Shown here: positions 1 through 434 of the stretch, one piece after another
How positions within the stretch are numbered: the first letter of the stretch is position 1
Layout: every line of letters begins with the position of its first letter
DNA from: Escherichia coli
Lineage (GTDB): Bacteria; Pseudomonadota; Gammaproteobacteria; Enterobacterales; Enterobacteriaceae
Assembly: GCF_003334355.1 (NCBI RefSeq)
Contig: NZ_QOWP01000107.1
Strand: one strand, 5' to 3'
Length of the DNA: 434 nt
Made by a program: the position numbers and the translations under genes
Notes under the pieces: generated by a model
What the model was told of the DNA's origin: nothing
The model's input: only the letters and a program-made list of their open reading frames with translations
Databases searched by the model: none

Positions 1-41
1 TCAAAAACATCGCATTTAACTATATTGTGAGGCTTGCATAA
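1..41 (+). CDS. 3' end of an upstream gene (partial, 5' end outside window), probably the side tail fibre gene that normally precedes tfa; codons begin at nt 3 and translate ...[12 protein letters not shown]
   Basis: Seen in sequence: the frame beginning at nt 3 is the only + frame open from the window start to the tfa start (the other two + frames stop at 17-19 TAA and 28-30 TGA). It ends at TAA 39-41, sharing one base with ATG 41-43. Established knowledge: tail fibre genes in lambdoid, Mu and P2-like phages sit directly upstream of their assembly chaperone, often with overlapping stop and start. Only 13 codons are visible, so the product identity is inferred. Confidence 0.45.
27..32 (+). 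promoter_or_regulatory. Shine-Dalgarno / ribosome-binding site for the tfa-like CDS (GTGAGG, core GAGG at 29-32)
   Basis: Seen in sequence: the purine-rich GAGG motif ends 8 nt before ATG 41, a typical spacing for enterobacterial translation initiation. It lies inside the last codons of the upstream ORF, consistent with translational coupling. Confidence 0.5.
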
Positions 42-434
42 TGGCATTCAGAATGAGTGAACAACCACGGACCATAAAAATTTATAATCTGCTGGCCGGA
101 ACTAATGAATTTATTGGTGAAGGTGACGCATATATTCCGCCTCATACAGGTCTGCCAGCAAACAGTACCGATATTGCACCGCCAGATATTCCGGCAGGCT
201 TCGTGGCTGTTTTCAACAGTGATGAGGCATCGTGGCATCTCGTTGAAGATCATCGGGGAAAAACCGTCTATGACGTGGCTTCCGGCGACGCGTTATTTAT
301 TTCTGAACTCGGTCCGTTACCGGAAAATGTTACCTGGTTATCGCCGGGAGGGGAATATCAGAAGTGGAACGGCACAGCCTGGGTGAAGGATACGGAAGCA
401 GAAAAACTGTTCCGGATCCGGGAGGCGGAAGAAA
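41..434 (+). CDS. tfa: Phage tail fibre assembly protein (Tfa family chaperone), N-terminal 131 codons; 3' end runs past the window edge
   Basis: Seen in sequence: ATG at 41 is followed by 131 sense codons with no stop up to the window end (last full codon 431-433), with an SD upstream and enterobacterial-style codon usage. Established knowledge: the translation matches, from memory, the N-terminus of E. coli prophage tail fibre assembly proteins (TfaE/TfaR/TfaQ-like), which share their conserved part with lambda Tfa, Mu U and P2 G. These paralogs are nearly identical, so I cannot say which one this is; the symbol is generic. No search was run. Confidence 0.9.

Follow-up and report, generated by a model that had tools for sequence, protein, structure and literature searches.

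A two-module model has been published for the tail fibre assembly chaperone (Tfa) of phage Mu. In this account (North et al. 2019), as it is presented in PMC9608196 and PMC7291167, a non-conserved N-terminal domain binds the distal end of the fibre, trimerisation and assembly are mediated by a conserved C-terminal helical domain, and the chaperones of Ur-lambda and Mu both stay on the mature virion. C-terminal oligomerisation and the need for such a chaperone in fibre trimer assembly are likewise described in the literature on Mu Tfa and on Pam3 gp25.

The described genes closest to the locus considered here are lambda tfa (orf-194, NP_040605) and two genes of Escherichia coli K-12, tfaR (b1373) and tfaQ (b1546), which are the same gene in the same place after stf, with the same TAATG overlap between the two reading frames. 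Over 191 aa the protein is 96.3% identical to lambda Tfa, 97.9% to K-12 TfaR and 98.4% to TfaQ. Its N-terminal part is slightly closer to lambda (one amino acid difference in 131), and its C-terminal part is identical to that of Rac and Qin and 90% identical to that of lambda, whose Tfa is three residues longer than the 191-aa protein of the TfaR type. More distant relatives with the same role, the same place after a fibre gene and the same Pfam family are Mu U (Tfa-Mu, PDB 5YVQ chain B), Mu U' and P2 G, all of phrog_136. They also have the published two-module architecture in common with our protein. In the C-terminal helical module, the last ~60 residues of Mu U and P2 G are 43-45% identical to ours, and the likeness to Mu U' is weaker, at 27% identity over aa 115-181 with an E of 0.015-0.03. 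Prophage e14 contributes two further relatives: TfaE (b1156, phrog_105) is homologous from end to end, the identities in its three segments being 33%, 42% and 43%, and TfaP (b1155, phrog_188) has the C-terminal module in common, at 43% identity over 44 aa. TfaP differs from our protein in carrying the C-terminal half of the Pfam domain only (model positions 58-130) and a different short N-terminal part, and it is undetectable with the fragment of the protein that our stretch of DNA encodes. The fibre chaperones gp38 and gp57A of phage T4 offer an analogy of function. Parts of lambda Stf and Tfa can reportedly replace parts of T4 gp37 and gp38, in work that is said to go back to Montag et al. 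1989 and Hashemolhosseini et al. 1996.

The window, by which we mean the whole 434-nucleotide stretch of E. coli DNA that was analysed, is 98.2% identical to lambda 21933-22366, where orf-314 (the 3' part of stf) and orf-194/tfa are annotated, and many E. coli chromosomes have loci annotated stfR/tfaR that agree with it at 100% identity. Of 5426 complete E. coli genomes, 4442 have matches to its sequence, at a median of two places per genome. Bases 41-433 of the plus strand form an open reading frame of 131 codons that begins MAFRMSEQ and is still open at the 3' end of the window. In one of the 100%-identical loci (L002 6041-6616, strain 504838) the corresponding full protein has 191 aa, and its residues 1-131 are the translation of the window; the window therefore holds 131 of 191 residues, or 69%, and the last 60 residues lie outside it. 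The original prediction, made from the letters of the sequence, had held that only the N-terminal part of a chaperone was captured and that this amounted to about the first two-thirds of the protein, and both statements agree with the identical locus. Relative to lambda, the coding differences number seven, of which six are synonymous and one non-synonymous. Because six of seven are synonymous, the frame is best read as a real gene under purifying selection and not as a chance open reading frame. Its best PHROG match is phrog_105, 'tail fiber assembly', which the full protein reaches at E 1.5e-98 and the fragment at E 1.6e-66, and an NCBIfam search returned no family for either. We thus list bases 41-433 as codons 1-131 of 191 of a tfa gene of the tfaR type that the window truncates, on the strength of its identity to lambda and E. 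coli genes. We hold with high confidence that the window is the stf/tfa junction of a lambdoid E. coli prophage of the Rac/Qin/lambda type and that its chaperone is to be read as a two-module protein. This is an ordinary tail fibre assembly chaperone gene of the lambda/Rac type, and the gene, the family and the two-module architecture were all already known.

Upstream of the chaperone, frame 3 of the plus strand encodes the last 12 codons and the TAA of the side tail fibre gene (stf/stfR; 3-41), and lambda orf-314, K-12 StfR and StfQ, and the Stf of L002 all finish with these same 12 residues. The two genes meet in a TAATG (39-43), with TAA at 39-41 and ATG at 41-43, just as the annotated end of stf and the annotated start of tfa share one base in lambda (21973) and likewise in E. 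coli. The tfa ATG is preceded, at a distance of 9 nt, by a GAGG (28-31) that can be read by eye as a possible Shine-Dalgarno sequence. The overlap is of a kind typical of translational coupling, and together with the GAGG it suggests that synthesis of fibre and chaperone may be coupled in this way. As expected of a member of the Tfa family, tfa lies directly downstream of a tail fibre gene on the same strand in lambda, L002 and K-12 Rac and Qin alike, and the full order in L002 is J, a lom-like gene, stfR (1132 codons), tfaR (191 codons) and, on the opposite strand, pinR.

Several observations concern the surroundings of this junction. The gene that comes directly 3' of tfa on the opposite strand encodes a Pin-family invertase (pinR/pinQ), both in the 100%-identical locus L002 (6714-7304, minus strand) and in K-12 Rac (L005 5085-5675) and Qin (L007 3623-4213). 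In Mu and e14 an invertase adjoins an invertible fibre/chaperone segment at the corresponding place. L002 and K-12 Rac and Qin have no second annotated stf/tfa set. Two predicted proteins, P0001 (443 aa) and P0003 (686 aa), run from a fibre C-terminal region in frame into a complete Tfa; these may be either Stf-Tfa fusions that arose through a frame change at the TAATG junction or artefacts of gene calling. Finally, GenBank record MW057783.1 is named 'Campylobacter phage CJLB-4' (48,361 bp, host C. jejuni), and its bases 21853-22286, in lambda-like coordinates, are 98.2% identical to the window. Judging by this one match, the sequence may be that of lambda, in which case the record would be wrongly labelled or a contaminant.

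How much of the family resemblance such a fragment retains depends on where along the protein the resemblance lies. We carried out the comparison, domain by domain, that had been proposed with the original prediction, against Mu U, P2 G, lambda Tfa and the E. coli prophage paralogues, and took in Mu U' as well. In blastp searches, aa 1-131 found nothing below E = 1 in Mu U, Mu U', P2 G or TfaP. With aa 132-191 alone, by contrast, Mu U was matched at 44.6% identity (E 1e-12), P2 G at 42.9% (E 2e-12) and e14 TfaP at 43% (E 3e-7). Searches of PDB sequences behaved in the same manner: the full protein matched Mu U (5yvq_B) at E 3e-8, over aa 127-191 only, and the search with the fragment lacked Mu U and returned matches at chance level (2q30_A at E 0.25, xylanases at E 1.4). 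A profile of 68 sequences of the lambda-type subfamily also matched Mu U only at profile positions 123-193.

Family models place the common part in the same region. Against the Pfam family Caudo_TAP (PF02413), the full protein aligns over aa 72-191 with model positions 1-130 of 131, for 144.9 bits (E 1.9e-42), and the fragment aligns over aa 72-130 with model positions 1-69, for 33.7 bits (E 4.7e-8), so that about three-quarters of the family score comes from the ~60 residues outside the window. Among the PHROGs, phrog_105 takes in TfaR, lambda Tfa and TfaE, phrog_136 takes in Mu U, U' and P2 G, and TfaP falls in phrog_188; wherever one of these families hits another, the hit maps to the last ~70 residues. 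Five PHROGs that the full protein matches (phrog_136, 188, 3792, 5572 and 2341) were lost with the fragment. Since TfaP carries Pfam model positions 58-130 only, the common core can be placed at approximately TfaR aa 119-191, of which about a dozen residues fall within the window. These results support the view that the C-terminal module ties lambda Tfa, Mu U, P2 G and TfaP together and that truncation to the fragment abolishes pairwise detection of Mu U, P2 G and TfaP. Two elements of the original prediction are borne out here. The C-terminal portion is indeed what is conserved across lambda Tfa, Mu U and P2 G, with 43-45% identity in aa 132-191 and none found with the fragment; and the expectation that comparisons based on the fragment could underestimate distant relatedness proved too cautious, as none of the pairwise matches to Mu U, P2 G or TfaP survives the truncation.

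The predicted structure divides the protein at nearly the same place. An AlphaFold2 model built on alignment A1, the 68-sequence profile of lambda-type homologues, has a mean pLDDT of 97.5 and a pTM of 0.77; its strands all fall between aa 10 and 116, and three helices follow at 118-152, 158-176 and 179-184. The beta-rich N-terminal domain of this model (aa 1-117; bases 41-391, plus strand) lies wholly inside the window; it is the subfamily-specific part and would bind the fibre tip. Only the first 14 residues (aa 118-131; 392-433, plus strand) of the long helix 118-152 are encoded in the window. This helix opens the conserved C-terminal helical module, whose remainder (aa 132-191) is outside; with residue 131 the last one encoded, the window lacks almost the whole of the module by which the subfamilies are connected. 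The three helices of the module are present in the 100%-identical full-length locus, where the module aligns to Mu U 113-174, including YRVLLNRVDTS...EWP, and thus has the family motif ...RVDTS..P...WP; none of this motif is in the window. A Foldseek search of the model against the PDB returned nothing at E <= 0.001, and structural similarity to the N-terminal fold of the Mu U type (5YVQ chain B, residues ~1-100) was not found.

The difference between the two parts of the protein is not, however, one of all or nothing. Bases 254-430 of the plus strand encode the first half of Caudo_TAP (aa 72-130, model positions 1-69 of 131), and because the Pfam domain starts at aa 72, the fragment includes a weakly conserved first half of it and can still be assigned to the family. 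Mu U, for its part, matches the entire Pfam model (Mu U aa 40-175), so that aa 72-117, with the ...KW(N)G..WV.D hairpin, are also common to Mu U at the profile level. Among 67 full-length homologues below 60% identity, the mean identity is 35.8% for aa 1-131 versus 45.6% for aa 132-191, and the bias of conservation toward the C-terminus within the lambda-type subfamily is thus real but modest. In comparisons with relatives of the same subfamily, such as e14 TfaE, which gives an E of 1e-25 with the fragment and 1.5e-33 with the full protein, most of the score is carried by the fragment. Compared with lambda Tfa the pattern is even reversed, aa 1-131 being 99.2% identical and aa 132-191 90% identical, because this tfa allele is a recombinant. 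The statement that the N-terminal portion varies more between phages consequently stands across subfamilies, is of modest weight within the lambda type (36% versus 46%), and does not apply to the comparison with lambda itself.

The recombinant character of the allele is visible at the nucleotide level. The gene (L002 6041-6616) is 1.8% diverged from that of lambda (L001 3041-3625) in nt 1-393 and 13.7% diverged in nt 394-576, and its divergence from K-12 Rac (L005 4412-4987) is 2.5% and 0% over the same two intervals; in nt 394-576 it is likewise 0% diverged from both Rac and Qin. By its pattern of divergence, the tfa allele is a mosaic, and its junction falls close to the boundary between the domains, a short way beyond where the window ends. 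A wider sample of the family may point the same way: among the best 150 cluster representatives, 29 match the N-terminal part only and 24 the C-terminal part only. Some of these are fragments, and several are complete-looking proteins at >90% identity, a distribution that is consistent with shuffling of the two modules.

Three other readings of these data have to be weighed. The original prediction had itself been set against one of them, namely that the fragment already has the conserved domain of the family, or that conservation is approximately uniform along the protein, so that truncation would cost little in comparisons. Across subfamilies we largely did not find this: the fragment yields only 33.7 of the 144.9 Pfam bits, every pairwise and PDB match to Mu U, P2 G and TfaP disappears with it, and so do the matches to the five PHROGs named above. 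In favour of uniformity, the fragment retains a Caudo_TAP match (E 4.7e-8) and reaches phrog_105 at E 1.6e-66 and e14 TfaE, whose homology runs the whole length, at E 1e-25, the two parts differ in identity by only 36% versus 46% across the 67 homologues of the same subfamily, and the whole Pfam model is matched by Mu U. We consider near-uniform conservation improbable as a general description, and for comparisons across subfamilies it is already largely refuted.

The two remaining readings concern the gene itself. Its 100%-identical copies lie in the context of Rac-like cryptic prophages, next to pinR, ydfK and uspF, and Rac and Qin are annotated as cryptic prophages in K-12, so one might take the open reading frame for a decaying remnant that provides no working chaperone, in which case any argument from its domains would have merely historical value. 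Decay is hard to reconcile with a frame that stays open through all 191 codons in the identical loci, with the 6:1 ratio of synonymous to non-synonymous substitutions relative to lambda, with an upstream stf that is a full 1132-codon gene in L002, and with the occurrence of the sequence in 4442 of the 5426 complete genomes, and we regard decay as quite unlikely. There is an exceedingly small chance, in our estimation, that the real gene is instead a 77-aa open reading frame on the minus strand (20-253) or a 93-aa frame in another register of the plus strand (105-386). Both owe their candidacy to a mechanical list of open reading frames, whereas all annotated records put tfa in the frame that starts at 41, and it is to this frame that the homology, the Pfam and PHROG matches and the synonymous bias belong. 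With annotation, homology and substitutions all favouring the frame at 41, we rejected the two other frames as mechanical products of the search.

Returning to the reading of the locus as encoding a two-module chaperone, the comparisons fit the published Mu model and allow a mechanism to be sketched. The N-terminal domain of Tfa, specific to one type of fibre tip, would bind the receptor-binding C-terminal end of Stf. The C-terminal helical module (~aa 118-191), which is common to lambda Tfa, Mu U/U', P2 G and e14 TfaP, would oligomerise and so hold three fibre chains in register for trimer folding, a step that we carry over from the published work on Mu. Both fibre binding and oligomerisation are thus attributed to this protein by analogy and should be understood as probable roles. 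Lambda, Rac and Qin have the same Tfa N-terminal domain together with the same HxH-repeat end of Stf, and Mu and P2 have another N-terminal domain together with another fibre end, ...INGTWYNVA. The type of N-terminal domain therefore appears to go with the type of fibre C-terminus, an association that, at the level of sequence, is one of co-variation only. On the fibre side, the C-terminal region of Stf (L002 2643-6041) carries HxH repeats, which presumably resemble the metal-binding needle of T4 gp37. In blastp comparisons of Stf C-termini, the tips vary between alleles, with 70-85% identity over the last ~250-320 residues, and the last ~30 residues are invariant.

A tentative extension of this model concerns the construction of the N-terminal domain. 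When slices of the alignment were compared with one another by hhalign, aa 38-67 paired with aa 93-116 (P = 4e-4), and a regular expression of the form LPxNxT...PP...(F/W)(N/D)...W found both units, 55 aa apart. The motif of the first unit, found by both approaches, spans aa 38-65 (152-235, plus strand) and that of the second aa 93-114 (317-382, plus strand). One homologue, P0029 (652 aa), has eight tandem copies of the motif at a spacing of 54-55 aa, followed by a single C-terminal helical module. It is possible, if rather doubtful at present, that Tfa's N-terminal domain is built from a repeat of ~55 aa that occurs in two copies here and in at least eight in some homologues. If this is true, chaperones of the Tfa type have an extensible, repeat-based fibre-binding part that is structurally undescribed, and a confident AlphaFold2 model that finds no match among solved structures would be in line with such a part.

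Our findings bear on how fragmentary phage and prophage sequences are to be read. When a contig or window ends at codon 131 of tfa, the putative fibre-specific domain is kept and the module common to the subfamilies is lost. Used as a query in pairwise searches, a fragment of this kind misses relatives of the Mu U, P2 G and TfaP types, and profile scores drop about four-fold. For the family as a whole, the comparisons provide a small independent confirmation, on a chaperone of the lambda/Rac type, of the two-module architecture that was published for Mu Tfa.
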